Of a stretch of 59,381 bases of DNA, positions 6,841 to 59,381 are shown one piece after another. Origin of the DNA: a virus. Its lineage: Duplodnaviria; Caudoviricetes. The stretch lies in the IMG/VR virus record IMGVR_UViG_3300037603_000091, positions 1 to 59,381 of that record. One strand, given 5' to 3'. A program made the position numbers and the translations under genes. The notes beneath the pieces were generated by a model. That model was given only the letters and a program-made list of their open reading frames with translations. It searched no databases and had not been told where the DNA came from. The number at the start of each line of letters is the position of its first letter. Positions within the stretch are counted from its first letter, which is position 1.

Positions 6841-7076
6841 AAAGGGAGTAAAGGGGAGTAATTTTCCTGTTAACCAAAGTAGCCTAAACCACTGAAAATA
6901 AAGGCTTTACTCCCCTTTACTCTATTTACTCTATATAAAAGTAATAGAGTTAGTTTCCTGCGACAGCGGTCGGATGGAAAGATGGAGAGCGATGGGGAGT
7001 ATTCAGAGTAAAAGGGAGTAGCACCCTGTAATTGCTAGTGTTTTGCTACTCCCTATGGAGTTTGAAAGGGGAGTAG
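6841..7076. repeat. GAGTA iteron element 1 (putative replication origin or other cis element)
   Basis: About 10 GAGTA/TACTC units; 16-bp inverted repeat 6846..6861 / 6907..6922; AT-rich core; 33-bp identity with 41047..41079. Confidence 0.8.
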
Positions 7077-10820: not shown

Positions 10821-11840
10821 CTACGCCGCCGAGACCAGCAGCAGCTCCATTCCGTTGATGTCTGCGATTGTCCACTCGAGTGCCGTGGCCAGGTTGGTCT
10901 CGTACACCTCGTAGTGTCGGCCGAAGCCCGCTCCAAGCGTCTGTGCAGCGTTCAGAACGTCTCCAGAGCCCGTTTTGAGGCCCATCTGCACCCCTGTTGG
11001 GCCACCACCTGAGTTGCGTCCTCTGGCGCCCACGCACACGGCGAGGGGTGTCAGCCCCTGGGCTGTTGCTGTGAGGTCGCCCAGAGTGAAGGCGGCGCGC
11101 TGGCCCGCAGTGTCTGAAGCAAGGACTGCAAGGTCATCCAGAGTGACTGCATTGATGTCTGTGACCGCACCGCCGGACCACGTGTTCTCGGTTCCTGCTC
11201 CTGTGATCTCGAGAGTGGCAACTCGCATCTCAGTTGTCTGCTCGTCCGCCACTATCAACTCACGGAATCCCTGACCGTTGGTGGTCTCGTTGCCACCAGG
11301 TCTCACGCTGGTGAACAGAAGCGCGCCAAGTCCGGCAATGCTGCTGTCGATATTGCCAGAGTAGTTGGCGATTGAGATCTTGTCGAAGAACACGTCAATC
11401 GTGCCAGTTCCATCACCGTTTATTACGAGGTGCACGTCCACCTGCATCTCGCTGTCGGATGGGAGTCCAAAGGAAACGCCCTGGTTCACGTATGATCCTG
11501 AGACGTTGACCTCGAACTCCAGTGATCCATTTTCCTGATCAAAGCGGAAGATGCCCAGATCGTTGACCTCGTCTCGACACTCGAAGAACTGTCTGTCAGT
11601 CGAGGAGCCCAGGGGAGGGAAAGTTGTTACAAAGTGGATCCACACGTCGGTGGGCTGTGCGCCATCAAGGACGGCCACCGCGCCGTTGCGAGGGTTTGTG
11701 ACTCCGTCGCTGCTCGTTCCTGACAACACCAGGATCTGAGCGCGCTGAAAGTCGGCATCGTTCTCGGTTGCGGAGCTGTCAACTGTGCCACCGATGGTGG
11801 TGAAGGACTCGAACTCGTTCGCAGCAAACAGGATTGTCAT
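10821..11840 (-). CDS. Tail-associated beta-rich protein (putative receptor-binding)
   Basis: Position after tail tip genes; beta-strand-rich acidic composition. Confidence 0.6.
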   Translation of the reverse strand: MTILFAANEFESFTTIGGTVDSSATENDADFQRAQILVLSGTSSDGVTNPRNGAVAVLDGAQPTDVWIHFVTTFPPLGSSTDRQFFECRDEVNDLGIFRFDQENGSLEFEVNVSGSYVNQGVSFGLPSDSEMQVDVHLVINGDGTGTIDVFFDKISIANYSGNIDSSIAGLGALLFTSVRPGGNETTNGQGFRELIVADEQTTEMRVATLEITGAGTENTWSGGAVTDINAVTLDDLAVLASDTAGQRAAFTLGDLTATAQGLTPLAVCVGARGRNSGGGPTGVQMGLKTGSGDVLNAAQTLGAGFGRHYEVYETNLATALEWTIADINGMELLLVSAA

Positions 11841-24679: not shown

Positions 24680-25086
24680 CTCTTAAGCGCCGCAAAGTAC
24701 AGCACGATCGTGTCGGCTGGCTTCAGCTTCTCCCACTGCATGACGCGCCAGACCAGATTGTCTGTGTCGCAGATCTCATCATACTCTGTGAAGTCGTCGG
24801 TGCCATCCTGCGGCTCGATAATTGCAATCTGCTCGGGACGGGGCGTGAGCTGATCGAACATCTTCGTGAGTCCCAGTCCTCCACCAGAGCCAGGGACAAA
24901 CACGCCAACAACATCGGCTTCTGCCTCTGGAAAGATCCTCTCTTCACTCTGCGAATCATCGCTGTTTGCACGCCAAGGCTTGTCACAGTCGTCCGACTTC
25001 CGAGGGAGTCTGCGAAGTGTCACGGTGCGCCCGTTCTCACGAATGAGTCTGTTGGCGAGGCTCTGGAACCTTGTAAAATCAACCAC
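24676..25086 (-). CDS. Head closure/head-tail joining protein
   Basis: ANRLIRENGRTVTL; synteny. Confidence 0.7.
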   Translation of the reverse strand: MVDFTRFQSLANRLIRENGRTVTLRRLPRKSDDCDKPWRANSDDSQSEERIFPEAEADVVGVFVPGSGGGLGLTKMFDQLTPRPEQIAIIEPQDGTDDFTEYDEICDTDNLVWRVMQWEKLKPADTIVLYFAALKR

Positions 25087-26052: not shown

Positions 26053-26888
26053 TGTGGCCTCACCTTCTCCAGTCTGTCAATGATGACACTTCGAATTGTG
26101 ACTCCGGGAGCAACCTCCGCTGCGATCCAGTCGGTGTCCCTGTCAGCTGTCACTGCTCCGATGAGACCGAGCTCATCGCCGATGTCCAGGAAGGTGGCAA
26201 TCTCAGCCTGGTGCTTTTGGAAGAAGCGCTGACCAGCCGTGACAGCCTCCCTCTGGGTGTAGCCAAGCATGAAGGACAGGAGTCCAAGAAGGTGAACTTG
26301 GAGCTGGTCCATGATGTTCTGGCGCCTGCGAGATGTCTCACGGATGGACTCCGCTGTGTCGTATAGCTTGACACGCGTCTTTGTGTCGGGGTGGTCCCGG
26401 CGAGCTCTGTCGTACCAGGTGATGGACAGGATGCGAGCCTGTGCAAAACCGTCTCCGTCTCGCGTGTAGCTGTAGTCTTCCCTGACGACAGGCAGTGTGT
26501 ATTCGATCTGGAACGTGGCAGGGTTGAAGGCTGCCTGCTCGTGGTAGATGACAGTGGTGATGACGCCGTCAAGACCCATGATGATCTGTGGGTGAAGTCT
26601 CTGCTGAAGACCAACGCGATAATCGACCTCCTGGAACTGCTGACCGCTCTTCATGAGATCAAGAATGGCTGGCTCAGCATCAGCGTACGAGCGCCCGTCC
26701 TGAACATACTGTTCGATTGCAGACCCGACTGCTGCCTGATCTTCAGTCGAGATGGGGTTCTCGAACATGATCTCAAGCTGATCAGATCCTCTCAGGACGC
26801 ACCCCTGGAATCCTGTGATGCCAAGCTCCCGAACTGCGATGTCAGCGTCATGTGCGCTGATGTCAGATCTCTGGAATGTCAAGCTCAT
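26049..26888 (-). CDS. Hypothetical protein
   Basis: 279-aa ORF, ATGA-coupled. Confidence 0.75.
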
Positions 26889-28039
26889 GAGATTCTCAGC
26901 GCGTAGATGCGCGCCTCCCTGATTGTTGCTTCAACTCCAGCAGTTGAGGTGCGCCACTGAAGATCGATGGTGTCCCCTGCTGTCAAGGCAGTTTGGAACA
27001 CGCGCATGCTGGGGTGAGCCTGGTCCGTTGCGGCAAGACCACCCTGGAAGTCAGCACCCGCCGAGTCCTTGGCCTCCTGCTTGTGCAGAGTGGTGATCAG
27101 AGCACCACCTGCCAGCACCTGAGCTTCAAAGTCACTTGTGGTGCCATCCAGGGCCCAGTTGTAGTAGACGAACACCAGATAGGTGCCGCTTGTCACGATG
27201 CTGGCTGAGCCGAACGTGGTGAACGCAGTGGATGTCGAAGTGGCTGGAGTCAGTCCTTCAAATTGAGCGACCTCAGCGACGCCCGGAACACCCTGTGGTC
27301 CCTGAGCCCCCGTTGCACCAGCAGGGCCAGCAGGGCCTGGGTCACCCTGGGGTCCCTGGGGTCCAACGGACCCTGCATCAACATCGGTGATGACAACCAG
27401 GTTGAAGTCAGCATCTGTTGGGACATCAGTGCCCGTGCCGTTGTCTCCGAGACGAATGTTCACATCAAAGCCCGTCACGGTCTCGTTGGCAACGAAGGCG
27501 TTGGTGTCTGTGAAGACAGTTGAGCCGCGCGGCGTCACAACCACGACATAGTTTGCGTCAGGAGGAGCCGTGGTGAATGTGAAGCTGAAGTCTCCAGTTC
27601 CATTCTTTGTGACCGTGACACCCACTCCTGTGAAGCTCCCAGCGGAGGCATCCACACGTCCAAAGGCAAACGCTCCAGGCGCGGCGTCAGCACCGTCAGC
27701 ACCAGCTGGCCCTTGTGGTCCCTGGGCGCCAGTCGGTCCCTGTGGACCATCGTTGCCCTGTGGACCCTGTGGACCTGTCGCTCCCGTTGGTCCGGTTGGA
27801 CCTGTCGCTCCGTCATTTCCCTGCGGACCCGCAGGTCCAACTGGACCCTGTGGTCCCTGTGGACCTGTCGCTCCTGCTGGTCCCTGTGGACCTGTCGCTC
27901 CTGCTGGACCCTCCAAATCTGACAGAAGCGCCCAGCCGTTGGCAACATCCGGATCGAATGCTGGCACCCGGAGTGTTCCCGAGAACGGCGCAGTAAACTG
28001 CGGCAGGCTTGGATCAGATAGCTTCTTGTTTGTTGCCAT
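26885..28039 (-). CDS. Collagen-like fibre protein (two Gly-X-Y tracts, beta domains)
   Basis: GPAGATGPQ repeats separated by beta-rich domains. Confidence 0.85.
27700..27912. repeat. Coding tandem repeats of collagen tract (9/27-bp units)
   Basis: ggtccctgtggacctgtcgctcctgctgg repeated. Confidence 0.8.
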
Positions 28040-32832: not shown

Positions 32833-32861
32833 GTGATATCAACATTTCTTCGACTTGTAAA
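32833..32861 (-). promoter_or_regulatory. Putative leftward promoter TTTACA-N17-TATCAC for scaffold/capsid
   Basis: -35 overlaps the first half of the CtrA-like box. Confidence 0.5.
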
Positions 32862-32909
32862 CCTTTTCTTAACTTTTGCGAAGTAGAGTGATTCTCATAG
32901 AAACGGAGA
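32858..32909 (+). promoter_or_regulatory. Island promoter 1: TAAA-N7-TTAA-N11-TAGAGT...CATAGAAACGGAGA (CtrA-like)
   Basis: Same geometry as copies at 34290 and 39956. Confidence 0.7.
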
Positions 32910-32915
32910 ACAGCA

Positions 32916-33119
32916 ATGGAACTCAACAAGCAGCACACTCGCTTCTACAAGAGCAAGGCAAACCTCGAGGCAGGCTTAGCGCGCTTCGACTTTGATCGCT
33001 TTCGACCCCTGATGGTCGAGACGGTCGACGGATGGACTGCCATCTTCAATGGCGTGAGTGTTCACAATGCTGGCGGCCAGCCCATCTGGATGGCTCAGCG
33101 TGGCTTCACAACGATCTAG
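32916..33119 (+). CDS. Hypothetical protein (island 1)
   Basis: GGAG RBS after island promoter. Confidence 0.75.
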   Translation: MELNKQHTRFYKSKANLEAGLARFDFDRFRPLMVETVDGWTAIFNGVSVHNAGGQPIWMAQRGFTTI

Positions 33120-33128
33120 GAGGAAGAC

Positions 33129-33818
33129 ATGACAGAGAAGTTCAAGCGCACGAGCATCGAGAGCTATCACAACAACTGCACCCTGGTCGCTGTCAAGCTG
33201 ATGGCCCAGGGGAGGCACACCGACGAGGAGATCCTGACAGCGTTCCGTGCCAACGGATACAAGGACGACGATGGGATGAGCCACTACAAGTGGACGAAGG
33301 CAGCTGCCGATCTCGGGTTCGAGCTGGAGACCGTCAAGATCCCTCGTCCGAAGGGCAGCAAGTACATCACCTATGACAACGACTATGCCTGGTGGGGCGA
33401 GGTGACTCGCCGCGTTGACCACGGCAAGTACACGCTGGCACAGTTCATCAAGGACAATCCCCAGGGAGACTTCTTCATCTCTGTCGTGGGCCATGCCCTT
33501 TGCGTCCGGGACGGTCGTGTGATGGACCCGAACTGCCGCAGCAGCTCCCTGAGTCGTCGAGTGACAGGCGCCAAGCGCGTTCTGAACGCTCCGGCACGTC
33601 TCGCCGACGGTCGCCGCCTGGAGATCCTCGTGCTGAAGGGGAAGTGGGACTCAGCGGCACGTGCTCGCCGCGCGGCAGCCTGGCAGTGGTGCGAGAACTA
33701 CAAGGCCACGCACGGTGGTCAGGCACCGCTCCTGGAGGACGTGCTGGAGAACACCCCGCTGACCAAGGCCGATGTCAACTGGGACCTGAAGCGCGGTCGC
33801 ATGGAGCTGGTGAACTGA
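33129..33818 (+). CDS. Papain-like (C39-like) fold protein with C-terminal AD..WD..RG domain
   Basis: NNCTLVA, GHALCVRDG..MD give a Cys-His-Asp set; C-terminus resembles 57192..57611. Confidence 0.6.
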   Translation: MTEKFKRTSIESYHNNCTLVAVKLMAQGRHTDEEILTAFRANGYKDDDGMSHYKWTKAAADLGFELETVKIPRPKGSKYITYDNDYAWWGEVTRRVDHGKYTLAQFIKDNPQGDFFISVVGHALCVRDGRVMDPNCRSSSLSRRVTGAKRVLNAPARLADGRRLEILVLKGKWDSAARARRAAAWQWCENYKATHGGQAPLLEDVLENTPLTKADVNWDLKRGRMELVN

Positions 33819-34048
33819 TGGCTGGGAAAGACGAGAGAGCGTATCGCAAGGCACTCATCAAGCTCCTGGAAGAGGAGGGCGTTGAGAGCTGGGTGGAGGG
33901 GCGAGGGTCCAAGCATCCGTACATAGAGTTCATGGTGAACGGCAGACGGATCAGACAGTCCTACGGGACATCGCCCAGTGACAGCCGTGGTCTGAAGAAC
34001 TTCAGGTCGCAGGCTCGCCGCAACATCAACATGGCAAGGGAGGACTAG
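33818..34048 (+). CDS. HicA-like protein, 76 aa
   Basis: GRGSKHP...YGTSPSDSRGLKNFRSQARR; TGATG-coupled. Confidence 0.6.
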   Translation: MAGKDERAYRKALIKLLEEEGVESWVEGRGSKHPYIEFMVNGRRIRQSYGTSPSDSRGLKNFRSQARRNINMARED

Positions 34049-34257
34049 ATGGTGCCTCGGAGGTCGACTGGCTTGGGCGCGCAGTGGCCTGTCACGAAGA
34101 GGTGCTTGGGCACGGACTTGGCCCACTCCTTGACATCCTCGAACACAGCGGCCTTGCAGTCCTCGATTGTCTCATGGTAGGCAACCCGCTGACCAACTGG
34201 CTTGCAGGAGGCAACGTCGGGGCTGGTGCAGAGTAGAAGAGTCATGATGAAGTCCAT
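34045..34257 (-). CDS. Small Cys-containing hypothetical protein, probably leaderless mRNA
   Basis: ATG 7 nt after a putative -10 AATACT; no RBS; four Cys. Confidence 0.6.
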   Translation of the reverse strand: MDFIMTLLLCTSPDVASCKPVGQRVAYHETIEDCKAAVFEDVKEWAKSVPKHLFVTGHCAPKPVDLRGTI

Positions 34258-34289
34258 GTCAGAAAGTATTTCGGAAAATCTTCGATCTG

Positions 34290-34340
34290 TAAACCTTCTA
34301 TTTACACATTTGACGTAGACTGATCACATAGAAACGGAGA
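34290..34340 (+). promoter_or_regulatory. Island promoter 2: TAAA-N7-TTTA-N11-TAGACT...CATAGAAACGGAGA (degenerate CtrA-like)
   Basis: Same geometry as other two; overlaps -35 of leftward TTTACA-N17-AATACT (34265..34293). Confidence 0.65.
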
Positions 34341-34346
34341 CCAGCA

Positions 34347-34460
34347 ATGGACCACAAGCAGAGAGCCCTGAGCAGCCTGATACAGTTCGGACTGACTGGC
34401 GCACTTGGCGCGCTGGCCTTCGCACAGATCATCAACGCAATAGCAGGAGCAATACAATGA
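34347..34460 (+). CDS. 37-aa hydrophobic micropeptide MDHKQRALSSLIQFGLTGALGALAFAQIINAIAGAIQ
   Basis: First ORF after island promoter 2, GGAG RBS, ATGA-coupled to next gene. Confidence 0.75.
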   Translation: MDHKQRALSSLIQFGLTGALGALAFAQIINAIAGAIQ

Positions 34461-34642
34461 GCAAGATCTGGTGGATAGTCGTGAACGGCGAGCGGTTCGA
34501 GGGCATCTCTGCCCGAGCGCTGGCCCGTGTCACCCGCCTTGCATTCCGACACGATCTGGAGTGCACATACGGAATCGCTGGCGTGGCATCCTTCACCCAG
34601 CCAACCTTCAGCGAGATGATGGACAGGCTCGCTGCTGCATAG
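34457..34642 (+). CDS. Hypothetical protein (island 2)
   Basis: AGGAG RBS. Confidence 0.7.
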   Translation: MSKIWWIVVNGERFEGISARALARVTRLAFRHDLECTYGIAGVASFTQPTFSEMMDRLAAA

Positions 34643-34669
34643 AATCTAACCCAGAAAAGGAGACACATC

Positions 34670-35419
34670 ATGGGAACAGACATACACACGGCCCTCGAGG
34701 TCAAGATCGGTGGGGCGTGGACCTGCCTCACAACCATAGAGCCGTACGATGATGACGACTCATGGCTGAGTCCGAAGGACAGCATCGCGGACGACCGCAA
34801 CTATGGCTTCTTCGCTGCCATGGCCGATGTCCGGAACGGCTTCGGATTCGCAGGATGCGACACGGGCGACGCGATCACTCCGATTGCCATGCCACGTGGC
34901 ATCCCGGAGGATCTCTCACCGGAGGTTCAGGCATGGTACAATCAGGGCATAGAGCACACCCCGAGCTGGCACACTCTTGCCGACATCCTTGCGTATGACT
35001 GGACACAGCCCAGAACACAGCGCGGCTGGGTGACTCACAGAGAGTGGGCTCGCTACGCATGCGCCGGACAGCCTGACGCATGGTCGGGCGACATCTCTGG
35101 TGGCATGATTGTGCATGTCCCACCCTCCGCCTTTGCCCTCCGCTGGGCAGAGGCCAAGCGCCACTTCAATCTTCCCGAGCAGCGCTGGGCACAGTCTCAC
35201 CTGTGGCATCCTCGTGGTGAGGACGACGAGGCACTTGAGAAGTGGTTCCTTGAGAAGTGGGACGGCAAGCGCCCGTACACACAGGTCCAGTGGACCAGGC
35301 CGCTGTACGACAGCATGGGGCACCAGATGGGAGAGCTCATGGCAGAGATGCTGGCCGTGTCCATCAAGCACGGTGTACCACACGAGGACGTGCGAATCGT
35401 CTTCTACTTCGACAGCTAG
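34670..35419 (+). CDS. Conserved phage hypothetical protein (island 2)
   Basis: MGTDIH, RNYGFFA.MADVRN, PRGIPEDLS, HTPSW.TL, RIVFYFDS. Confidence 0.8.
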   Translation: MGTDIHTALEVKIGGAWTCLTTIEPYDDDDSWLSPKDSIADDRNYGFFAAMADVRNGFGFAGCDTGDAITPIAMPRGIPEDLSPEVQAWYNQGIEHTPSWHTLADILAYDWTQPRTQRGWVTHREWARYACAGQPDAWSGDISGGMIVHVPPSAFALRWAEAKRHFNLPEQRWAQSHLWHPRGEDDEALEKWFLEKWDGKRPYTQVQWTRPLYDSMGHQMGELMAEMLAVSIKHGVPHEDVRIVFYFDS

Positions 35420-36639
35420 AGGAAGTCCTCAGGATTGAGTCCGGCGCGGGTGAAGGCATCCGCGTCGGCACGGGCCAACTGGGCCAGTGTGAGCTCGTCG
35501 CCGCTTCTGTTCACGAACTTGCGGAGTGGCAGGTCACCATCCCGGAACAGCTTGCCCCTCGTGGGCCCGAGGACATCGTCCTGGAACTCTGCTGACTGGC
35601 GCCCCAGCCAGTCCTGATAGGTGATCTTGGCGTCCACCTGTCCCGTCATTCCTCTGATGCGAGTCCTTGAGAAGTCGTCGAAGGCTCCCTTGTGTCCTCG
35701 TGGAAGGTCAGCGCGGGATGTGACGGAGGCTAGGCCATTCTCTCGAGTGTACTGACGCAGGAGCTGACGGGTGGTGACTGGCTTGGCAGGTCTGCGACCG
35801 AGCACCTCCCCACGGATGATGGGAACTCTAAGGGATCTGCAGTTGAAGTGCAGCGGCGGGATCGGTCCCTTGCCCACTGGGTGCATAGTTCCGTCCAGTG
35901 AGGAGCAGACACGCGTCGTTCTCTCGTCCAGTGTGGCAACGTACATCTCCTCTTCGAACAGGTCGGCATTGGCCGTGTAGAACTCTCGCTTGGCAGCGTT
36001 GGAGATCGCATTGACAGCGGTCCTGGTGATCGCTGCAGCGCCGTTCCGTGTGATCTGGGTCGCTCCGTCTCGGCCACGGCCCAGGGTGGTGCCGTTGATC
36101 CTGGAGGCGATTTGTCGAGGCGTCTCGCCCTGAACGATGCCCATCTTGATCTGCTGATCGATGCGAGCAAGGTCGGCACGGCGGATGTCCCTTGCCCATT
36201 CCCGCATGGTGCGTCCCTCAAAGGGGAATGTTGTCACGATGGCACGGAGCTGGCTCGCTGAGGGAAGGACCATGTCCAGCTCGACAGGCGCGATGGATGC
36301 CACGGCGGCTGCCACGAAGGCGGGCTCCGCCTTGGCCAGTGCGAACATCTCCTCCATCCAGACGTCGATTGCCCGGTCCCACGCGCCGCCTCTGATTGAT
36401 CTGATCTGCTTCAGCAGAAGCTTCTGGCGCTGAGCAGTTATGGTGCCACGAGAGAGGCGGTCCTCGATCTCAAGGCGCATGTCGCGCTCCACCTCGTCCA
36501 GGATCTTCAGCACGCGGTTGCGAACCGAGCCGGACAGGCGCAGAAGACCGATCTGATGCCGAATCAGAGCGTCGAACAGCGCCTCGTTGACGTTGTCAGG
36601 CAGCTCGCCGCCGAACTGGGTGCCTGGGTTGATGGTCAT
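35416..36639 (-). CDS. Head morphogenesis protein (SPP1 gp7/Mu gpF-like), start MTINPG
   Basis: ITRTA, ATLDERTT.VCSSLDG, PPLHFNCRS. Confidence 0.88.
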   Translation of the reverse strand: MTINPGTQFGGELPDNVNEALFDALIRHQIGLLRLSGSVRNRVLKILDEVERDMRLEIEDRLSRGTITAQRQKLLLKQIRSIRGGAWDRAIDVWMEEMFALAKAEPAFVAAAVASIAPVELDMVLPSASQLRAIVTTFPFEGRTMREWARDIRRADLARIDQQIKMGIVQGETPRQIASRINGTTLGRGRDGATQITRNGAAAITRTAVNAISNAAKREFYTANADLFEEEMYVATLDERTTRVCSSLDGTMHPVGKGPIPPLHFNCRSLRVPIIRGEVLGRRPAKPVTTRQLLRQYTRENGLASVTSRADLPRGHKGAFDDFSRTRIRGMTGQVDAKITYQDWLGRQSAEFQDDVLGPTRGKLFRDGDLPLRKFVNRSGDELTLAQLARADADAFTRAGLNPEDFL

Positions 36640-37004
36640 GAGGCAGGGTCCGTGTGGAAGTCGTCTTCTCGATTGAGAAGCATGTCGGTCTGAAGGCACT
36701 TGGCAAGCCACATGGTGGACTTGAGGTCTGGCAGGGAGCAGATGTACTCGCGATACGAGCCATTCTTGTCAGCCAGAATGACGACCATGTGCTGGATGTC
36801 AGGATCCTGCTCGAGGCGTCCGACAAGTGTGAACAGGCACTCCTCGACCGAGTTGTCATAGCTGTCCTGCTCGAGAGGGGTCACCTCCGCTGGGAGGTCG
36901 TCCCAGGGCTGTCGGTCTCGATCAGGCGTCCTCTTCTGGATCACGCTCAGGATCTTCGACAGGATCGCCCGTCCCAGTCGGGGTTCTTGCGATGGCATCC
37001 TCAA
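36636..37004 (-). CDS. Hypothetical protein; start uncertain, probably shorter
   Basis: Fills portal-to-gp7 gap, ATGA-coupled to next gene. Confidence 0.5.
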   Translation of the reverse strand: MRMPSQEPRLGRAILSKILSVIQKRTPDRDRQPWDDLPAEVTPLEQDSYDNSVEECLFTLVGRLEQDPDIQHMVVILADKNGSYREYICSLPDLKSTMWLAKCLQTDMLLNREDDFHTDPAS

Positions 37005-38406
37005 TCTCCTCGATGATCAGCTCTGTCTCTTCCTCAAAGGTCAGACCAGTGAAGTCCCGCTTGCGGAGGTTCTCGTGGATCGTCTGAAGCGAGATTGGCA
37101 GACCAAGGTTCTTCGCCTGCATATACTTTACCAGGAGGTCCCCGGTAAGTGGGTCGTCCGCGAACTCCAGATTGGGCTCCACAGTCACGTCATTCGGATT
37201 GAGACCCATCCACTCTGCCGCGTGGCGCAGGGACTGCTGCAGTCCTGCTGCTCCAGCAATGGCCACCTGTGTCAGGGTCGCCGTCTGAGCTGAGATGCGC
37301 ATCTTGAGAGCCTCTCCCGACTCGCGCTCGGAGCCAGAGCCTGTCGCAAGGATCTGCGCACCCTTGTCGGCCGCCATCTTGCGATCGTTCATGAGAGCCT
37401 GACGCTGCTCGGGCAGGCCCGTGCTGGACACCCCGACGAACTTGGCATCACCACCCTGCGGCACGTGGATCACACGATTGGCCCCGGTGCCGATGTCGTC
37501 ATCGTCCTCTCCTGCACCAATGATCACAAGAGTGTCCTGTGCCTGCATGAAGAGGTTCTGTCGATAGTCTGCCTCGCCGCGATACACGGTCAGGGCAAGC
37601 TCCGCGAGCCCAAGAAGGGGCGGCTCCTCGGGCTCTGCCACGAGGTCCTTGGAGTTGACGAATGTCCATGGGATGAAGTCGATGGTGCGTCCGCGAAGGG
37701 AGGGCACGAGCTGCTTGCTCTCGGTGAAGGAGGTTCCCTCGTCCTCTCGATAGACGCCGACGGAGTAGGCACCGCTGGCCTCGTTGGCCAGTGTCTCACC
37801 GAGGATCAGAACGCGGGTCTTCTCGCGGAACTCCCACTCGAAGTCCTGGTCGCGCTCGAACTCTGACTCGTCAAGAGCCAGGAAGTTCAGAATCTGTGTC
37901 TCGAGGCCGTCGCGACGGCCCACGTCCCAGTTCAGGATGGACGGTGCGTTGTACATGGCGATGTACGGGACGATGTCGCCCAGGCCAGCGTTCTCAGGGA
38001 AGTCGACGAGCAGGCCGCAGCGGCCAGGAACGAGCTGCTGCTCCGTGATGCGCTGCAGAAGCAGCTGAAGAGGCTCGCCACGAGGGGTTGCTCGCTCGAG
38101 GATCGGTTCCATTCGAGTTGGCACCTCCACGACCGCAGGCTTGCGGTGCATGACGCCGAGTGCGGCCTCGACCGCGTCATTCACGAAGTCTGGGAAGTGT
38201 GCGCGCTTCTTGTAGGCATCGTACGCCAGATATCCTGCAGACTTGGTGTCTCCGGACTTCAGGCCGTCCTCCAGCATGCCAGACGTGGCAGGGAGGTAGG
38301 TCTGTCCCTTCGCCTTCACGGCGCGGGAGCCACGATACGTGTCGAGCATCAGCTGCCAGTCAGGGATGAACTGCGTGTATTGCGGGTGCTTGCTGTCAAC
38401 TGCCAT
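36922..38406 (-). CDS. Portal protein (DUF4055-like)
   Basis: KHPQY...W, YLP, AYKKRA.F, GRCGLLVD, PPLL.LA, ESGEAL. Confidence 0.9.
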   Translation of the reverse strand: MAVDSKHPQYTQFIPDWQLMLDTYRGSRAVKAKGQTYLPATSGMLEDGLKSGDTKSAGYLAYDAYKKRAHFPDFVNDAVEAALGVMHRKPAVVEVPTRMEPILERATPRGEPLQLLLQRITEQQLVPGRCGLLVDFPENAGLGDIVPYIAMYNAPSILNWDVGRRDGLETQILNFLALDESEFERDQDFEWEFREKTRVLILGETLANEASGAYSVGVYREDEGTSFTESKQLVPSLRGRTIDFIPWTFVNSKDLVAEPEEPPLLGLAELALTVYRGEADYRQNLFMQAQDTLVIIGAGEDDDDIGTGANRVIHVPQGGDAKFVGVSSTGLPEQRQALMNDRKMAADKGAQILATGSGSERESGEALKMRISAQTATLTQVAIAGAAGLQQSLRHAAEWMGLNPNDVTVEPNLEFADDPLTGDLLVKYMQAKNLGLPISLQTIHENLRKRDFTGLTFEEETELIIEEIEDAIARTPTGTGDPVEDPERDPEEDA

Positions 38407-38459
38407 GGAGGTTCCTCAGGGATCTGCGGTCGGAAGATAGTCGTGAAATCAGCACGGCG

Positions 38460-39965
38460 CTAGTACATTCCACTAGTGCGACCAGACTTGACGGATGTGC
38501 CCTGGTCACGGATCATGTAGCGTGCCTCGTCGGCGATGTGGTCCTCGGTGTCCGTGTTCACGTCATCAAGGTCCTTGTCAGACCGGGGAAGCACCGGGAC
38601 TGTACGGCGAAACTGCGCGCAGCCCTCGAACACGAAGAGACCGGGCTTCTCTCTTGGGCCACCCTCCTTGGGTGGGTGCGCGTTCTTGAAGTAGGTCCGC
38701 ATGGTCTGCCACCCTGCCTTCCTGGAGCCAGGACGCTTGTCGGCACGGGTCCACTTGACCCCCTTGTGAAGCTTGTTGCTCGCCAGTCGGATCGGCTTCT
38801 CCATGTCTGTCGCAATGGACGGACCGTTCTCCTCTGTCCAGATGGACGTGTCGGCAGGCCCAGGCTTGACTCGCTCGTCCAGGTTCCAGCTGAGCTGTCG
38901 CTCCACGATGCCCTTGGCGATGTCAGCGGCCAGCATGCGAACGCCCTCGTTCGGCTCCCCGGTCCAACCGTACCACTCGGCGATGCGGAATCGGTCGCCC
39001 CGCACGGAGGACCGCCACTTGCCGTCGCCGTCCACGTAGTCAGAGCCGTCGGAGATGGCCCACCAGCCAACGGAGAAGGGGGCGGAGGAGCCCCAGTCGA
39101 AGGATCGAGTGATCTTCCAGGAGTGGGGGATGTCGAACTTCTTCACCACGTTGTGCTTCTCGGACCACACATCATCGAACATGCCACCAGCGACGATGTC
39201 CCACGAGCCATGGAGCCATGCCTGCAGCTCTGCCTCGTTGCGGGCGGAGCTCTCGAGCTGAGCGATGTACGTGGGCTGTGCCTTGAGGAGGATGGTGTTC
39301 TCGTGCACGGTGCCCTTGATGGTGAGGCGTGACAGCTCCTCGCACTTGACCTCGCCTGTCTCAGGATCCTCGAACTCGAACTCCCTCATGCGGCAGATCT
39401 TGTCCTTCATGGGCAGCTCGAAGTAGTGCTTGACAGCGTTGTGGCCTGGACCATAGGGGTTGGTCGTTGATCGGATCATCCGTGGAACGTTCGGATTGGA
39501 GGATCGACAGCAGGAGATCATGCGCTTGTATGCGTTCATGGTCGGCCAGTTGGTGAGCTCGTCCCATCCAATGAAGGGATACTCGTGACCGTGATAGTTC
39601 CAGTAGTCATCGTCGCGATTGAACTGCCTCATGAGCAGCTCCTCGCCATCGGGCCAGACCCACTTGTGATCGGACCCGTTCCACTTGGCCTGTGGCCAGA
39701 TCAGGGGGAACCACTTCTTGCTCTTGGTGATGAGATCCTGAAGCTGCTTGTATGTCTGACGGAAGATGATTCCTCTCCAGTCAGAGCCATGGCCCTTGCC
39801 GGTCTGAGTGGCAAAGCACATGAGGAGCGTGTCCGACTTGCCGGGACCACGCGTGCCATGATACAGGAGCTCGAAGACTCCAGGGTTGCCCAGGACAGCC
39901 TGCTGGGAGCCCGGAAGGGGACGCCAGATGCGGGGTGCGGTCTTGTTCTGACTTCTTAACTTCAT
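38460..39965 (-). CDS. terL: Terminase large subunit
   Basis: GTRGPGKSD, IGWDELT, STTNPYGPGH, SFDWG, EDHIADEARY. Confidence 0.95.
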   Translation of the reverse strand: MKLRSQNKTAPRIWRPLPGSQQAVLGNPGVFELLYHGTRGPGKSDTLLMCFATQTGKGHGSDWRGIIFRQTYKQLQDLITKSKKWFPLIWPQAKWNGSDHKWVWPDGEELLMRQFNRDDDYWNYHGHEYPFIGWDELTNWPTMNAYKRMISCCRSSNPNVPRMIRSTTNPYGPGHNAVKHYFELPMKDKICRMREFEFEDPETGEVKCEELSRLTIKGTVHENTILLKAQPTYIAQLESSARNEAELQAWLHGSWDIVAGGMFDDVWSEKHNVVKKFDIPHSWKITRSFDWGSSAPFSVGWWAISDGSDYVDGDGKWRSSVRGDRFRIAEWYGWTGEPNEGVRMLAADIAKGIVERQLSWNLDERVKPGPADTSIWTEENGPSIATDMEKPIRLASNKLHKGVKWTRADKRPGSRKAGWQTMRTYFKNAHPPKEGGPREKPGLFVFEGCAQFRRTVPVLPRSDKDLDDVNTDTEDHIADEARYMIRDQGTSVKSGRTSGMY

Positions 39966-40006
39966 CTTAACAGATCCGAGCTAGACTGAGTCCATAGAAA
40001 CGGAGA
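39956..40006 (+). promoter_or_regulatory. Island promoter 3: perfect TTAA-N7-TTAA CtrA-type box, N11, TAGACT...CATAGAAACGGAGA
   Basis: TTAA CTTCATC TTAA at 39956..39970 covers the terL start codon on the other strand. Confidence 0.75.
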
Positions 40007-40011
40007 ACATC

Positions 40012-40221
40012 ATGTCCATCAAAGTCGAAATCAGCTTCAGCATCTACCACTGGACAGGAGAGACCGACTCGTACACGACCGACTCCCTGGGTCTCCACAT
40101 CCTTGACAACCGCATCATGGTTCGTGACGACATCACTGGTGAATACATCCTCATCAAGAAGATGGACGGGCACTGGCAGATCCAGGATGGCGCCAAGTGC
40201 AAGGTCCGAGTTCTCAGCTAG
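40012..40221 (+). CDS. Hypothetical protein (island 3, between terS and terL)
   Basis: GGAG RBS after island promoter. Confidence 0.75.
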   Translation: MSIKVEISFSIYHWTGETDSYTTDSLGLHILDNRIMVRDDITGEYILIKKMDGHWQIQDGAKCKVRVLS

Positions 40222-40876
40222 CATCCTCGTCGTCCTTCACATACTCGATGGTGATTCCGTGAGCGGCAAGGTCCTCCTCCATGGAGCCACTGGACATGGG
40301 GATCTCGACAACGCCACCAGAGACAGTCTGGTTGACGTCCACCTTGTTGCCATAGCCCTCTGGGTCGTGCTTCTTGGCGGCCATCTCGAGCATCTTGTCC
40401 GAGTGCACCAGCTTGTGGCCGATCAGCTGTCCAGTCTTGACGTTGAACACGGGCTCTAGCCAGCCCTCGATACCACGCCGATAGACCTCTCTGTCGATCT
40501 TGTCAACGAACATGTGTCGGGCCTCCTCGACCATGTCCGCGAATGCATCATTGTTGACCTCCATGTCCCGAATGACATTGTAGGAGATGCCTGCTGCACG
40601 TGCCGAGGCAGCCTTGCGGCCCGTCCTTGCGTAGTTGATGAGGAACTGTCTGGCGACATCAGGAGTGAATCGGCGCTGAGGCACGATCTCCTCGACCAGG
40701 ATGTTCTGACCAGTCTCCTCGTCGATGAGTCCCCAGTCATGGGTCTCCGGATCTGGCATGATGTCCTGATCGGTGGCTGGCTTTATCAGATGCAGAAAGT
40801 TGCCGAGAAGCGCCTTGCGCTCGTCCTCGGTCATGTCCTCTATCTCTTGGCGGATGTCATCACCCACTTCGTCCAT
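40214..40876 (-). CDS. terS: Terminase small subunit (start MDEVGD)
   Basis: HTH FL...ARTG...SARAAGIS, RRGIEG..EPVF, HSDKML; GAGGAG RBS; upstream of terL. Confidence 0.85.
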   Translation of the reverse strand: MDEVGDDIRQEIEDMTEDERKALLGNFLHLIKPATDQDIMPDPETHDWGLIDEETGQNILVEEIVPQRRFTPDVARQFLINYARTGRKAASARAAGISYNVIRDMEVNNDAFADMVEEARHMFVDKIDREVYRRGIEGWLEPVFNVKTGQLIGHKLVHSDKMLEMAAKKHDPEGYGNKVDVNQTVSGGVVEIPMSSGSMEEDLAAHGITIEYVKDDEDAS

Positions 40877-40980
40877 TCTCGGTTCTCCTCGCGCCCATGC
40901 GCATGCGATGGAGCCATGCCCCATCTGCTGAGTCTCGCCAGAACATAGCCCAGAACACACGAATCGCCAAGTTGAGGATT

Positions 40981-41225
40981 GAATCAGAGTAAAGGGGAGT
41001 AAATTGAGGTGGATGGGGAGTAGCCTAGAACCTTGATTCTAAACCGTTTACTCCCCTTTACTCTATTTACTCTATATAATTATATAAGATATAGAATCCC
41101 AGTCACCCGGTCGGATCCAGAATCACACGAAAAATCAGAGTAATCAGAGTAATCAAAGTACTCCGTTGAAATCACTGAGGAAAAATTACTCCCCATCCGA
41201 TCCGAAAGGGAGTAACTACTCCCCT
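40981..41225. repeat. GAGTA iteron element 2
   Basis: About 11 GAGTA/TACTC units; 18-bp inverted repeat 40986..41003 / 41047..41064; AT-rich core; matches element 1. Confidence 0.8.
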
Positions 41226-44356: not shown

Positions 44357-44787
44357 GATGGCATGACCATCAGCGCGCCGAAGAACACGACGACGAAGAA
44401 CACGACGACGAGCTTGCCGAAGTGTGACTGACGACCGATGCGACTCTCTCGCTGGGCCATGTGGTATGCTGCTCTCTTTCCAAGTGACAACGGTGATTCT
44501 CCTTCTCTGACAAAGCCATTCTGCGCTAGAAGTGTAAAGAATCTGTTAAGAGTCAAAGAAAGTTCCTCGCGAACCGCCTCCGACTGAAGCAGCTTCTGTG
44601 CATTTTCATGCAGCTTTGTCTGCACCCGAGCAATGGTCTTGGAAGATTCAGAGAGTTGATTTTCCAAATCGTATATCACAGCCTGCTTGTCGTTATTTTC
44701 CTTCTCGGCTTGTTTTTGCAGCTCTTCTAGTCGAGCAATTTCACTGTTGGCATCGTGCAGATGTTCCCTGAGTGTCTTTCTAGGCAT
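44353..44787 (-). CDS. Coiled-coil protein with C-terminal membrane anchor (start MPRKTL)
   Basis: Heptad pattern, hydrophobic C-terminus, visibly AT-richer DNA. Confidence 0.7.
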   Translation of the reverse strand: MPRKTLREHLHDANSEIARLEELQKQAEKENNDKQAVIYDLENQLSESSKTIARVQTKLHENAQKLLQSEAVREELSLTLNRFFTLLAQNGFVREGESPLSLGKRAAYHMAQRESRIGRQSHFGKLVVVFFVVVFFGALMVMPS

Positions 44788-48710: not shown

Positions 48711-49043
48711 CTATGCCTCCCAGAAGAAGATGAGCTTCTCACAGGACTCCAGTCCTCGCTCCATTCGGTTCACCCAGAGACGGGACACTCCCATCTGGTG
48801 TGCCACCTGCGCCTGTGTCCAGTCTGCTCTGCGACGATACAGCACACAGCAGTCAGCTGGTGTGAGCTCGCGCTTCAGTCGACGACGCAGCTTGCCTCGA
48901 ATCGGATCGCGACCGTGCTCGAGCCGCACGTATGTCTGGCGCTTGTATCCCAGCGCGTCTGCAGCCTGCTTCTGATTGTACCCGCGTCGCCTGCGCCAGA
49001 GGAAGAGAAGCTCCGCGTCGGTTGGGCTGTCGCCGTCCTGCAT
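48711..49043 (-). CDS. Tandem XRE-type HTH regulator (start MQDGDS)
   Basis: YNQKQAADALG...RLEHG and WTQAQVAHQMGVSR.WVNRMERG. Confidence 0.8.
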   Translation of the reverse strand: MQDGDSPTDAELLFLWRRRRGYNQKQAADALGYKRQTYVRLEHGRDPIRGKLRRRLKRELTPADCCVLYRRRADWTQAQVAHQMGVSRLWVNRMERGLESCEKLIFFWEA

Positions 49044-49044
49044 C

Positions 49045-49455
49045 TCATGTGTTGTCGAGCTCACTCTGCAGCTCCTTTCTGAAGTTCTTGCCAGCGGGCC
49101 AATATGCCTGGGCATGCTCTATGAGCTCGGCCTTGGTGGAGCGACCCAAATAGCGTGCTGCGACGTCGCCGCGTAGCAAAAGTATATCCCTGCCGATCTT
49201 CAATAGAAGATGAACACGCCCCCCAGCATGATGTCTTTGAACCGCCCAGACGCGCTGCTCCTGGGTCATGTCGTGGTCGAGGCGCACGAGGGTCTCCTCC
49301 CGCACGGGCCAGCGGTCCTGCTGCTTGAGCTCTATCCAGCCCTCGACGTAGTTGACGTCAGGCGTGCCTGGGACAGCTGGGTTCTCAACCCGAACCGGGT
49401 CACGCCCCTTGAGAGCCGGACGAACCTGTGACCCCCAGAAGGAGGCCTCACTCAT
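49045..49455 (-). CDS. PD-(D/E)xK nuclease, Holliday-junction resolvase/VRR-NUC-like
   Basis: RVEN...PGTPDV...WIELK, EQRVW. Confidence 0.8.
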   Translation of the reverse strand: MSEASFWGSQVRPALKGRDPVRVENPAVPGTPDVNYVEGWIELKQQDRWPVREETLVRLDHDMTQEQRVWAVQRHHAGGRVHLLLKIGRDILLLRGDVAARYLGRSTKAELIEHAQAYWPAGKNFRKELQSELDNT

Positions 49456-58148: not shown

Positions 58149-58962
58149 AAACTTCTCTCCCTTTCTTCTCCCACCATCTCTTGAACCCTGACACCTGTTG
58201 AGCAGTTATCCCATACTCTTCAGCCAGGTCAACTCCACGCTCGCCCGAGAGGCGACGCTTGGCTATCTCAATCTGCTTCTCAAGAGGCACGCCACTCCGG
58301 CCCCTCGTGGACCTGCCACGGCGCACCATGTCCATGCTGTTCTCAGCATGTGTTCCTGTCTCAAGATGCTCGGGGTTCACACATCCAGGATTGTCGCACT
58401 TGTGTCGCACAACATGTCCATCGGGGATGTCCCCGCCGTGTATGCGCCAGCTGATTCTATGCGCTTGATGACAGGTTCCATTGATGTACATGACACCATA
58501 GCCACCAGCGTTCTTGGTTCCACCCCACTCCCAACAACCGCTGTCAGGATTAGAGTGCAGGGGAGTTGAGTACCACATCTCCAACTCGTTGGGAAGAATG
58601 CCAATCTCATTGGCTGCCCTGAGAAGGTCCAGTCGCACGGCATTCTTGTCGCTCGGACAGACCCTGTCATCAATCAGCATGTCATGAAGCTGAGCGTCCA
58701 GAATTATGGAAGCAGTTGCTATTATGTGCGCAAAGTGAGACAGTCCTGACTCAACATCATGATCTTGTCCGTTTTCCAGAGCAATTAGATGCCTGTAGAT
58801 TGCTCCAATGTATCCAGTGAGAGATATGGGCTTCTCCCGCCAGTTCATTGGACCATACTTCATGGCACCAAGGCGACAGGCCATGGCTGCCTCAACCATG
58901 CCTGTCTTTGGCAGGAGATGCATCGGAACTCTGTTCAGAGCCGCCCTGTCCTTGGGGTTCAT
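58096..58962 (-). CDS. dATP/dGTP diphosphohydrolase-like domain (DUF5664) fused to HNH endonuclease and HTH
   Basis: GAMKYG..NWR, RHL...GQD.D.ESGLSH.AH; then CWEW.G...GYG, AHRISW, RHKCDNPGCVNPEHL..GT..EN..D. Confidence 0.85.
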   Translation of the reverse strand: MNPKDRAALNRVPMHLLPKTGMVEAAMACRLGAMKYGPMNWREKPISLTGYIGAIYRHLIALENGQDHDVESGLSHFAHIIATASIILDAQLHDMLIDDRVCPSDKNAVRLDLLRAANEIGILPNELEMWYSTPLHSNPDSGCWEWGGTKNAGGYGVMYINGTCHQAHRISWRIHGGDIPDGHVVRHKCDNPGCVNPEHLETGTHAENSMDMVRRGRSTRGRSGVPLEKQIEIAKRRLSGERGVDLAEEYGITAQQVSGFKRWWEKKGREVYEETNSRGDGSRKKDKS

Positions 58963-59381
58963 GAGCACTCCTTCTGTCCAGTATCAGGATCGATGTAGCA
59001 GGCAGCGCCCTCCTCGACCTCCGGGCCATTGCTGCCCTCGTCGGTTCCGAGAATGCCGAAGCGCTTTCCGCCTGCGTTGAATGTTGTGCAGCCCTTGGCA
59101 CCGCCCTCCCATGCCTTGACATAGATGGCCTTGAAATCCTCCCATGCCATGTTCGGAGACACGTTGCAGGTCTTGGACACAGCTGAGTCAACAAGGCGAG
59201 CGCATGCTGCCAGAACTGTCACATGCTCCTCCGCTGTGACCTCCTCCGCGCGCTTGCCGAGCACGCCGAACTCGCGAGCACCATAGTCCGTCACGCGCTC
59301 CACAACTGGACCGTCGAAGGTCTGAATGGTGCGATCGTATCCATATGACCACACTGGCTCGATGCCAGATGAGACGTTGTC
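58959..59381 (-). CDS. nrdJ: Class II ribonucleotide reductase, C-terminal part (joined to 1..1420)
   Basis: VSSGIEP, VDSAVSKTCN, AKGCTTF, C-terminal CYIDPDTGQKECS. Confidence 0.9.
   Translation of the reverse strand, partial: DNVSSGIEPVWSYGYDRTIQTFDGPVVERVTDYGAREFGVLGKRAEEVTAEEHVTVLAACARLVDSAVSKTCNVSPNMAWEDFKAIYVKAWEGGAKGCTTFNAGGKRFGILGTDEGSNGPEVEEGAACYIDPDTGQKECS
59255..59381. repeat. Duplicate of 1..127 (assembly overlap)
   Basis: Exact identity. Confidence 0.95.

Follow-up and report, generated by a model that had tools for sequence, protein, structure and literature searches.

Candidate CtrA-type promoters ahead of three antisense gene cassettes in a PhiJL001-like phage genome

The virus record IMGVR_UViG_3300037603_000091 (Duplodnaviria; Caudoviricetes) was analyzed over its whole length of 59,381 bases, here called the window, and represents a complete 59.4-kb phage genome. 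All its credible genes run leftward on the minus strand except for three rightward cassettes at 32916-34048, 34347-35419, and 40012-40221, and one copy of a ca. 70-nt element lies ahead of each cassette. The three sites very probably belong to a conserved activator-type promoter class, referred to as class B, of which a single counterpart occurs in Alphaproteobacteria phage PhiJL001, the closest cultured phage. We lean toward reading the direct repeat in these promoters, the class B box, as an activation site for the CtrA protein of the host, with its 5′ end near position −38 of the predicted transcript.

The components of the element follow each other in the order T[A/T]AAC-N6-TT[A/T]AC, 10 nt, TAGA(G/C)T, GA, 3-4 nt, CATAGAAACGGAGA, 5-6 nt, and the ATG start codon. 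Copy 1 has the box TAAAC-N6-TTAAC (32858-32873, plus strand, as are all class B features given here), which corresponds to TAAA-N7-TTAA, and copy 2 has TAAAC-N6-TTTAC (34290-34305; TAAA-N7-TTTA); both were delimited from the sequence, the repeat family and the alignment. The box of copy 3 is a perfect TTAAC-N6-TTAAC (39956-39971) and overlaps the start codon of the large terminase gene terL, which reads CAT at 39963-39965. The predicted −10 hexamers are TAGAGT in copy 1 (32884-32889) and TAGACT in copies 2 (34316-34321) and 3 (39982-39987); at 15-19 nt from that of copy 1 there is no −35 hexamer (0-1 of six matches). The conserved leader CATAGAAACGGAGA occupies 32896-32909, 34327-34340, and 39993-40006 and includes the Shine-Dalgarno sequence GGAG, and we infer that transcription starts near its first A. 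Folding calculations indicated that the class B leaders are unstructured, with the ribosome-binding site inside the leader, and a search against Rfam gave no match in the window. In a repeat search the sites came out as two families of three copies each: in D5 (46 nt) the other two copies are 74% and 63% identical to the reference copy, in D8 (34 nt) 88% and 65%.

According to the original prediction the three islands hold the only credible plus-strand genes and the same element, with half-sites, spacing, TAGA(C/G)T and GA, precedes each of them. The first statement is borne out by the GC content at codon positions and by Pfam matches on the opposite strand; for the second, coordinates and letters are exact, including the box readings at 32858, 34290, and 39956 and the perfect third copy.

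The genome also contains five leftward class A promoters on the minus strand, with the pattern TTTAC[A/T]NCTG and a 17-nt gap between the TTTAC[A/T] hexamer and a second hexamer that starts with TA. In four of the five this is followed by a close variant of the TAGAAA(A/C)GGAG leader that class B also has. The −35 hexamers of class A match TTGACA at 4-5 of six positions, whereas the class B sites reach 0-2 of six at spacings of 16-18 nt, and the same holds for the PhiJL001 site. The −10 hexamers of class B match TATAAT at four of six positions, with no TG ahead of the −10 element, and a generic sigma-70 scan of the window called none of the three sites. Because of this difference in −35 matches and the silence of the sigma-70 scan we consider class B a distinct, −35-less and box-bearing class, for which dependence on an activator bound at the box would be the simplest reading. 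Alternative sigma factor readings (sigma-28, an extracytoplasmic-function type with AAC ... CGT spacing, or a −35 element shifted to the second half-site) were compared by eye with their consensus sequences and rejected, as they left the conserved blocks out of register.

PhiJL001 is related to the window phage by a terminase identity of 63.6% and by collinear homologues of 43 of the 81 predicted proteins. It possesses both promoter classes, with six TTTACTTCTG boxes and one class B promoter. The latter consists of TTAACCCTCGCTTAAC (TTAAC-N6-TTAAC), 10 nt, TATGAT, 5 nt, CATAGAAGAGGAG, and the ATG of gp47, and the only perfect TTAA-N7-TTAA in the 63.6-kb PhiJL001 genome lies within it, at 27907-27921. 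Compared with copy 3 of the window, all ten half-site bases are identical and only one of the six spacer bases is. Since the half-sites were kept while the spacer diverged between phages with ca. 50% identical proteins, selection appears to act on the half-sites. TTAAC occurs at five loci in PhiJL001. Four of these loci are promoter loci, accounted for by the class B box together with the class A promoters of the gp39 and gp44 operons, in which cTGTTAACCA stands 23 nt ahead of the −35 element (24993-24998 and 26474-26479).

The gp47 promoter (AY576273, 27907-27967) thus resembles the window sites in box, spacing, −10 type, leader and distance to the ATG. It differs in being a single copy located in an accessory-gene region and co-directional with all other genes. 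We found no published description of this promoter in the literature searched. The PhiJL001 gene pair gp44-gp45, which is related to the first cassette, is likewise co-directional, belongs to the accessory region and has a class A promoter. Class B control and antisense placement are therefore features of the window phage and not of the genes.

More distant phages have fewer homologues of the 81 proteins: 30 in Pseudomonas phage PAE1, 28 in Sphaerotilus phage SN1 and 17 in roseophage RDJLphi1. The original prediction had looked to conservation of the motif in related phages. This holds for PhiJL001 with its perfect box and fails elsewhere, as neither a perfect TTAA-N7-TTAA nor the composite box was found in PAE1, SN1 and RDJLphi1 or in metagenomic relatives with 52-60% terminase identity (two sets of five records, three complete genomes). 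Yuavirus relatives whose hosts are gamma- or betaproteobacteria thus lack the box. The class A pattern TTTAC[A/T]NCTG is also lacking from PAE1 and SN1 and occurs only at control level in the metagenomic relatives. A search for close relatives by terminase gave at best 62% identity (32 IMG/VR loci and 22 metagenome loci), a scan with the 249-aa protein of the second cassette gave none, and no prophage relative was found in bacterial genome contigs. The exact-pattern scan for promoters of relatives produced one match, located in AT-rich coding DNA and attributed to chance. A TTAA-N7-TTAA at the start of comparison locus L003 was set aside as not comparable; it adjoins an adapter-like contig end and lies ca. 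700 nt upstream of terL.

The leader 14-mer CATAGAAACGGAGA occurs exactly three times in the window. With up to three mismatches there are 16 matches against 3.66 expected, a number reached in none of 100 shuffles. The fit to TTAA-N7-TTAA is perfect at 39956, with one mismatch at 32858 and two at 34290, and with up to one mismatch allowed, which leaves copy 2 uncounted, the window contains four matches where 1.25 are expected (2 of 100 shuffles reach four). The pattern T[AT]AAC-N6-TT[AT]AC-N10-TANNNT occurs three times and on average 0.0 times in 300 first-order Markov simulations, a crude null that also produced a spurious depletion of GANTC. A relaxed composite pattern matched the three cassette sites only, and loosening the −10 part added one place, in one of the twin elements described below. 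TTAAC itself is rare; of its seven loci in the window, three belong to the boxes, another adjoins a twin element and a further one is part of a weak fourth match. The locus beside twin element 1, GTTAACCAAA at 6869, resembles the cTGTTAACCA of PhiJL001.

A sequence model built from the four sites, the three copies and that of PhiJL001, had no further match at E<0.01 in a set of 50 sources totaling 769,528 bases. Its next match (E 0.011) was a class A promoter of PhiJL001 that has TTAACC upstream. The weak fourth match in the window, TTAAC-N6-TTTAC at 44534-44549 on the minus strand with a weak −10-like hexamer (E 0.071), is probably due to chance, since it is inside a coherent coiled-coil/membrane open reading frame (ORF) and no start codon follows its GGAGA. 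Depletion of GANTC, the CcrM site, was considered as a host marker and abandoned: the first-order null suggested a twofold depletion, but the ratio to the third-order expectation is alike in all four phages (0.80 in the window, 0.77 in PhiJL001, 0.81 in PAE1, 0.80 in SN1) and so is uninformative. RDJLphi1 (NC_015466) has a single GANTC site where a third-order model expects ca. 163.

The box sequence, its 11-bp phasing and its predicted position match those reported for CtrA-activated promoters (PMC4287350, PMC11264516). With the first A of CATAG taken as the start site, 6-7 nt past the predicted −10 hexamer, the three boxes would begin at −39, −38, and −38. Zhou et al. 2015 (PMC4287350) place the 5′ nucleotide of full CtrA motifs close to the −35 region in activated promoters; for ctrA P2 the position is −39. 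Functional sites with degenerate upstream half-sites are described by Rijal et al. (PMC11264516), such as fliQ with CTAA-N7-TTAA and fliL with AAAA-N7-TTAA. The likeness to the Caulobacter promoters that have a full TTAA-N7-TTAA site over the −35 region, such as ctrA P2, fliQ, fliL, and pilA site 1, covers the motif, a single site replacing the −35 element, the predicted −38/−39 position and the tolerance for a degenerate upstream half-site. The differences are that the present candidate sites are on a phage genome and that copy 2 deviates in both half-sites.

In the mechanism that we propose, CtrA~P, a response regulator of the host, would occupy the repeat, which is phased by 11 bp and has its predicted 5′ end near −38/−39, and would recruit RNA polymerase as it does at Caulobacter promoters activated by CtrA. 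The direct repeat T[A/T]AAC-N6-TT[A/T]AC would stand in for the −35 hexamer, 10 nt upstream of TAGA(G/C)T. Each class B promoter would then drive an accessory cassette that is set backwards into the leftward late operon, and expression of the cassettes would track CtrA activity of the host instead of the late program of the phage. A Trans_reg_C domain (PF00486) was not detected in six-frame translations of this phage and PhiJL001; RDJLphi1 has one, in a protein annotated as ctrA (gp37). With no OmpR/CtrA-type winged helix encoded in either phage, the host would have to supply any OmpR-family protein that reads the repeat.

The host is, in all likelihood, an alphaproteobacterium, as judged from the kinship with PhiJL001, which has an alphaproteobacterial host, and from a tail tip that is a module like that of the Rhodobacter capsulatus gene transfer agent (RcGTA), together with the matches of three proteins. 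For the tail-tip protein at least 82 of 123 phage matches are in Caulobacter, Rhodobacter, Brevundimonas, Roseobacter, and Dinoroseobacter phages. The adjoining 339-aa protein (10821-11840) matches 18 phage records, all 18 with alphaproteobacterial hosts (Caulobacterales, Rhodobacterales), and a 246-aa fiber protein has 36 of its 50 matches in alphaproteobacterial phages. The C-terminal ca. 110 aa of this fiber are 38.5% identical to tail proteins of the phiCbK group, which is a mere lead toward adsorption via pili or flagella.

Several observations weigh against CtrA as the reader of the boxes. Only one of the three boxes is perfect, and in copy 2 (TAAA-N7-TTTA) each half-site has a mismatch. 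The similarity of copies 1 and 2 extends far past the half-sites (CTTCGAnnTGTAAACCTT), as duplication would give, and their TGTAAA is TTTACA on the other strand, a possible −35 element of a leftward promoter, so that a role other than CtrA binding may explain why part of the box is retained. PhiJL001 is the one genome that lends comparative support, which could come down to inheritance of one promoter, and a phage regulator with tandem helix-turn-helix motifs is conserved in both phages. For the host class, RcGTA-like tail genes are also reported from betaproteobacterial prophages (PMC3070671), the window has no tRNA genes, and neither the search for prophage relatives in bacterial genome contigs nor that for close relatives with a known host was successful. 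The CtrA assignment in the original prediction therefore stands in part: the sites form one −35-less family with CtrA-like sequence, phasing and predicted position and with a perfect box in PhiJL001, but two of the six half-sites are TAAA and one is TTTA.

The tandem regulator leads to the first alternative, in which the box is an operator of a phage protein that activates −35-less promoters, for example the 134-aa protein encoded at 48711-49115 on the minus strand. Its two HTH_3/HTH_31 stretches could read a direct repeat, which makes it a candidate also for the TTTACTC repeats of the twin elements, and it is kept at the syntenic place in PhiJL001 with 41% identity. Both promoter classes are common to the window phage and PhiJL001 only, and the three TTTACTC repeats in each twin element suggest that the phage uses repeated operators of its own. 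Such an arrangement would resemble lambda CII at its antisense promoters. However, exact agreement with the CtrA consensus TTAAC-N6-TTAAC in both phages would not be expected of an operator specific to the phage, a regulator is present at the same place in PAE1 and SN1 although these lack the box, and XRE-type proteins usually bind inverted repeats. We regard this explanation as unlikely.

Activation by CtrA also has to be weighed against the view that the sites are ordinary host sigma-70 promoters, with a good −10 and no usable −35 element, that act early without an activator and were copied along with the cassettes, the CtrA likeness being a product of chance in AT-rich DNA. The recently duplicated appearance of copies 1 and 2 (74% over 46 nt) and the two imperfect boxes agree with this, as does the class A promoter of the PhiJL001 orthologues of cassette 1 genes a and b, which shows that these genes do not need class B. 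An antisense island in RDJLphi1 is moreover driven by a plain TTTACA-N17-TATCCT promoter. Plain promoters would, however, leave unexplained why half-sites were kept and spacers were not, and why the rare TTAAC is paired at an 11-bp phase; the −35 matches of 0-2 of six at 16-18 nt and the missing TG before the −10 element also speak against them. Altogether this view is quite improbable.

A host regulator of the OmpR/PhoB family other than CtrA could in principle be the reader, as pho boxes have the same geometry, with direct repeats phased by 11 bp and a distance of 10 nt to the −10 element, and neither phage encodes an OmpR/PhoB-type domain of its own; since the half-sites equal the CtrA consensus and, by eye, match the pho-box consensus at only 3-5 of seven positions, with copy 3 worst, we give this very little credence.

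The position of the cassettes implies a conflict with the leftward genes. The stop codons of cassettes 1, 2 and 3 overlap the converging leftward genes by 4, 4, and 8 nt. Cassette 2 ends in this way on the Mu F-like head morphogenesis gene (35416-36711, minus strand) and cassette 3 on the gene at the small terminase position (terS; 40214-40960, minus strand), a homologue of PhiJL001 gp58. No intrinsic terminator was called after any cassette. Because of the overlapping stops and the missing terminators, firing of the cassettes must run head-on into late transcription, both at terS/terL and in the region ahead of the scaffold and capsid genes. Since the start of the terL gene (38460-39965, minus strand) lies within box 3, leaving no space for a separate promoter, terL mRNA must cross cassette 3 in antisense. 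A GC-rich 12-bp hairpin without a U tract, the only strong hairpin after a cassette, was predicted on the plus strand at 35441-35470, 22 nt past the stop codon of cassette 2 and within the 3′ end of the Mu F-like gene (z −3.54; none of 200 shuffles folds as well). It is a possible 3′ end or stabilizer of the rightward RNA.

At copies 1 and 2 the box also overlaps a candidate leftward promoter. On the minus strand, TTTACA-N17-TATCAC (32833-32861) would serve the scaffold gene and TTTACA-N17-AATACT (34265-34293) a 70-aa gene, and in both the −35 hexamer is the reverse complement of the upstream half-site of the box. The TAAA half-sites may thus be kept for the leftward promoters, which for these two copies counts against CtrA, or one bound protein may switch both directions. 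From the head-on geometry, a role of the cassettes in deferring lysis, as put forward in the original prediction, would be plausible. In a more elaborate scheme the boxes would be two-way switches through which CtrA governs virion production: CtrA~P would activate the rightward cassettes, block the −35 elements of the leftward scaffold/capsid promoters at copies 1 and 2 by way of the common TGTAAA/TTTACA, and from copy 3 at the start of terL launch polymerases head-on into the terS-terL transcript, so that packaging and head assembly would be held at high CtrA and released when CtrA falls. This scheme is doubtful in our opinion.

The genome around the cassettes consists of two minus-strand modules. 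A replication and DNA-modification module extends from ca. 6.75 kb across the ends to 41.2 kb, and a late module from 40.96 to 7.08 kb with terS, terL, portal, Mu F-like, scaffold, capsid, tail and lysis genes. The ends of the record (1-127 and 59255-59381) are identical over 127 bp, and a ribonucleotide reductase gene is split over them into minus-strand ORFs at 2-1504 and 58959-59381, which together identify the record as a circular assembly. The runs listed for the stretch comprise 20 pond metagenome runs and no RNA run, and the genome recurs unchanged in them, without natural variants, as judged from four runs compared as contigs (zero differing letters). At the starts of the two modules, in the two largest intergenic gaps, lie the twin elements (6878-6958 and 41019-41099; 81 nt, 77% identical, repeat family D6), each of which contains a TATAA stretch and TTTACTC three times in direct repeat. 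These elements probably serve the phage itself as control sites for whole modules.

The ORFs of the cassettes carry the coding signature of the genome in codon-position GC (GC3 0.61-0.81, GC2 0.33-0.50), while minus-strand ORFs antisense to them do not, for example that at 39967-40224 with GC1 0.76 and GC3 0.45; we therefore consider the cassettes real coding sequence. The remaining plus-strand ORFs, a product of crude ORF calling, overlie Pfam-supported minus-strand genes and were discarded. The probable start of the Mu F-like ORF, from the alignment with PhiJL001, is an internal ATG ca. 24 codons past the listed GTG (region 36640-36921), and this start would leave a stretch of ca. 280 bp with small ORFs after the portal gene.

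Cassette 1 contains three genes. Gene a (32916-33119, 67 aa) is weakly similar to PhiJL001 gp44 (phmmer E 0.005 in a set of 27 proteins). Gene b (33129-33818, 229 aa) is an orthologue of gp45 and encodes a predicted papain-like Cys peptidase with an additional C-terminal domain; C17, H122, and D128 are invariant, there is a weak C39 hit, and a fold search of the model gave a weak C39/deubiquitinase-like fold. Three relatives were found for it besides itself and gp45, and relatives at 44% and 38% are among the proteins known for it. Gene c (33818-34048, 76 aa) is HicA-like (PADLOC E 8.4e-5), without a recognizable HicB partner within the cassette. The leftward 70-aa gene between cassettes 1 and 2 (34045-34257, minus strand) is weakly similar to PhiJL001 gp63, which follows the Mu F-like gene in that phage. 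Cassette 2 encodes a 37-aa hydrophobic peptide (34347-34460), a 61-aa protein (34457-34642) and a 249-aa protein (34670-35419) of the phrog_10141 family, which has 245 homologues at E≤1e-5, mostly from metagenomes and phages. Invariant residues of the 249-aa protein include D4, H6, E10, R55, N56, and H96, and its AlphaFold model is confident (pLDDT 88.7), with no fold match in the PDB (best Foldseek E 0.31, best VIA-align Z 3.8). Cassette 3 is a single 69-aa gene (40012-40221) for which no homologue was found besides itself. Searches of the cassette proteins against Pfam, PHROGs, NCBIfam, and PADLOC gave only the weak C39 hit, families of unknown function and the HicA-like hit, and comparison with PDB sequences gave nothing below E 0.2. 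An Atlas search returned unnamed viral clusters only, and identical cassette proteins are recorded on 15 contigs.

CtrA-regulated promoters are established in other alphaproteobacterial phages. The main text of Mascolo et al. 2022 (PMC9437464) describes them for pili- and flagellotropic phages, namely phiCbK-like phages, vB_BsubS-Delta, MMDA13, Palo, and Pasto, and gives for the cluster phages a normalized positional entropy below 0.75 for CtrA sites scored with a position-specific scoring matrix. Its lytic-deferment proposal calls its own mechanism speculative. As in the window, the phages described there have the CtrA motif of the host upstream of small phage genes of unknown function, but with many sites clustered in terminal repeats or in a gap of ca. 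1 kb between divergent blocks, whereas here single −35-type sites head antisense cassettes, with candidate sites at 32.9, 34.3, 40.0, and, weakly, 44.5 kb. That main text does not mention the PhiJL001-like lineage (JL001 occurs 0 times; the supplementary phage lists may include PhiJL001). Apart from those supplements, no description of CtrA boxes in PhiJL001-like phages or of antisense cassettes under CtrA boxes was found in the literature searched. That alphaproteobacterial phages have CtrA sites is already known; judging from the papers found, the lineage and the wiring by single sites that each head an antisense cassette are apparently undescribed.

A parallel in layout is the antisense three-gene island gp64-66 between terL and portal of RDJLphi1, which likewise comprises small accessory genes with their own promoter placed backwards among packaging and head genes. 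It differs in having an ordinary promoter and no TTAA-N7-TTAA, even with one mismatch. Morons are accessory genes that interrupt a late operon and have their own promoter and terminator. The cassettes have a predicted promoter of their own, but no intrinsic terminator was called, with only the hairpin after cassette 2 in its place, and antisense orientation is not part of the usual definition.

If the class B boxes are CtrA sites, host cell-state sensing by phages would extend to PhiJL001-like members of the Mesyanzhinovviridae, and with a different wiring, in which single activation-type sites each command an antisense cassette in the packaging/head operon, instead of clusters in terminal repeats. 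The seven uncharacterized cassette proteins, including a widespread phage family without a solved fold, would then be candidate effectors. Should CtrA drive these promoters, the layout would provide a concrete route from a host signal to late-gene output via promoter occlusion and head-on transcription, and the class B promoters may in this way let the phage read the state of its host.

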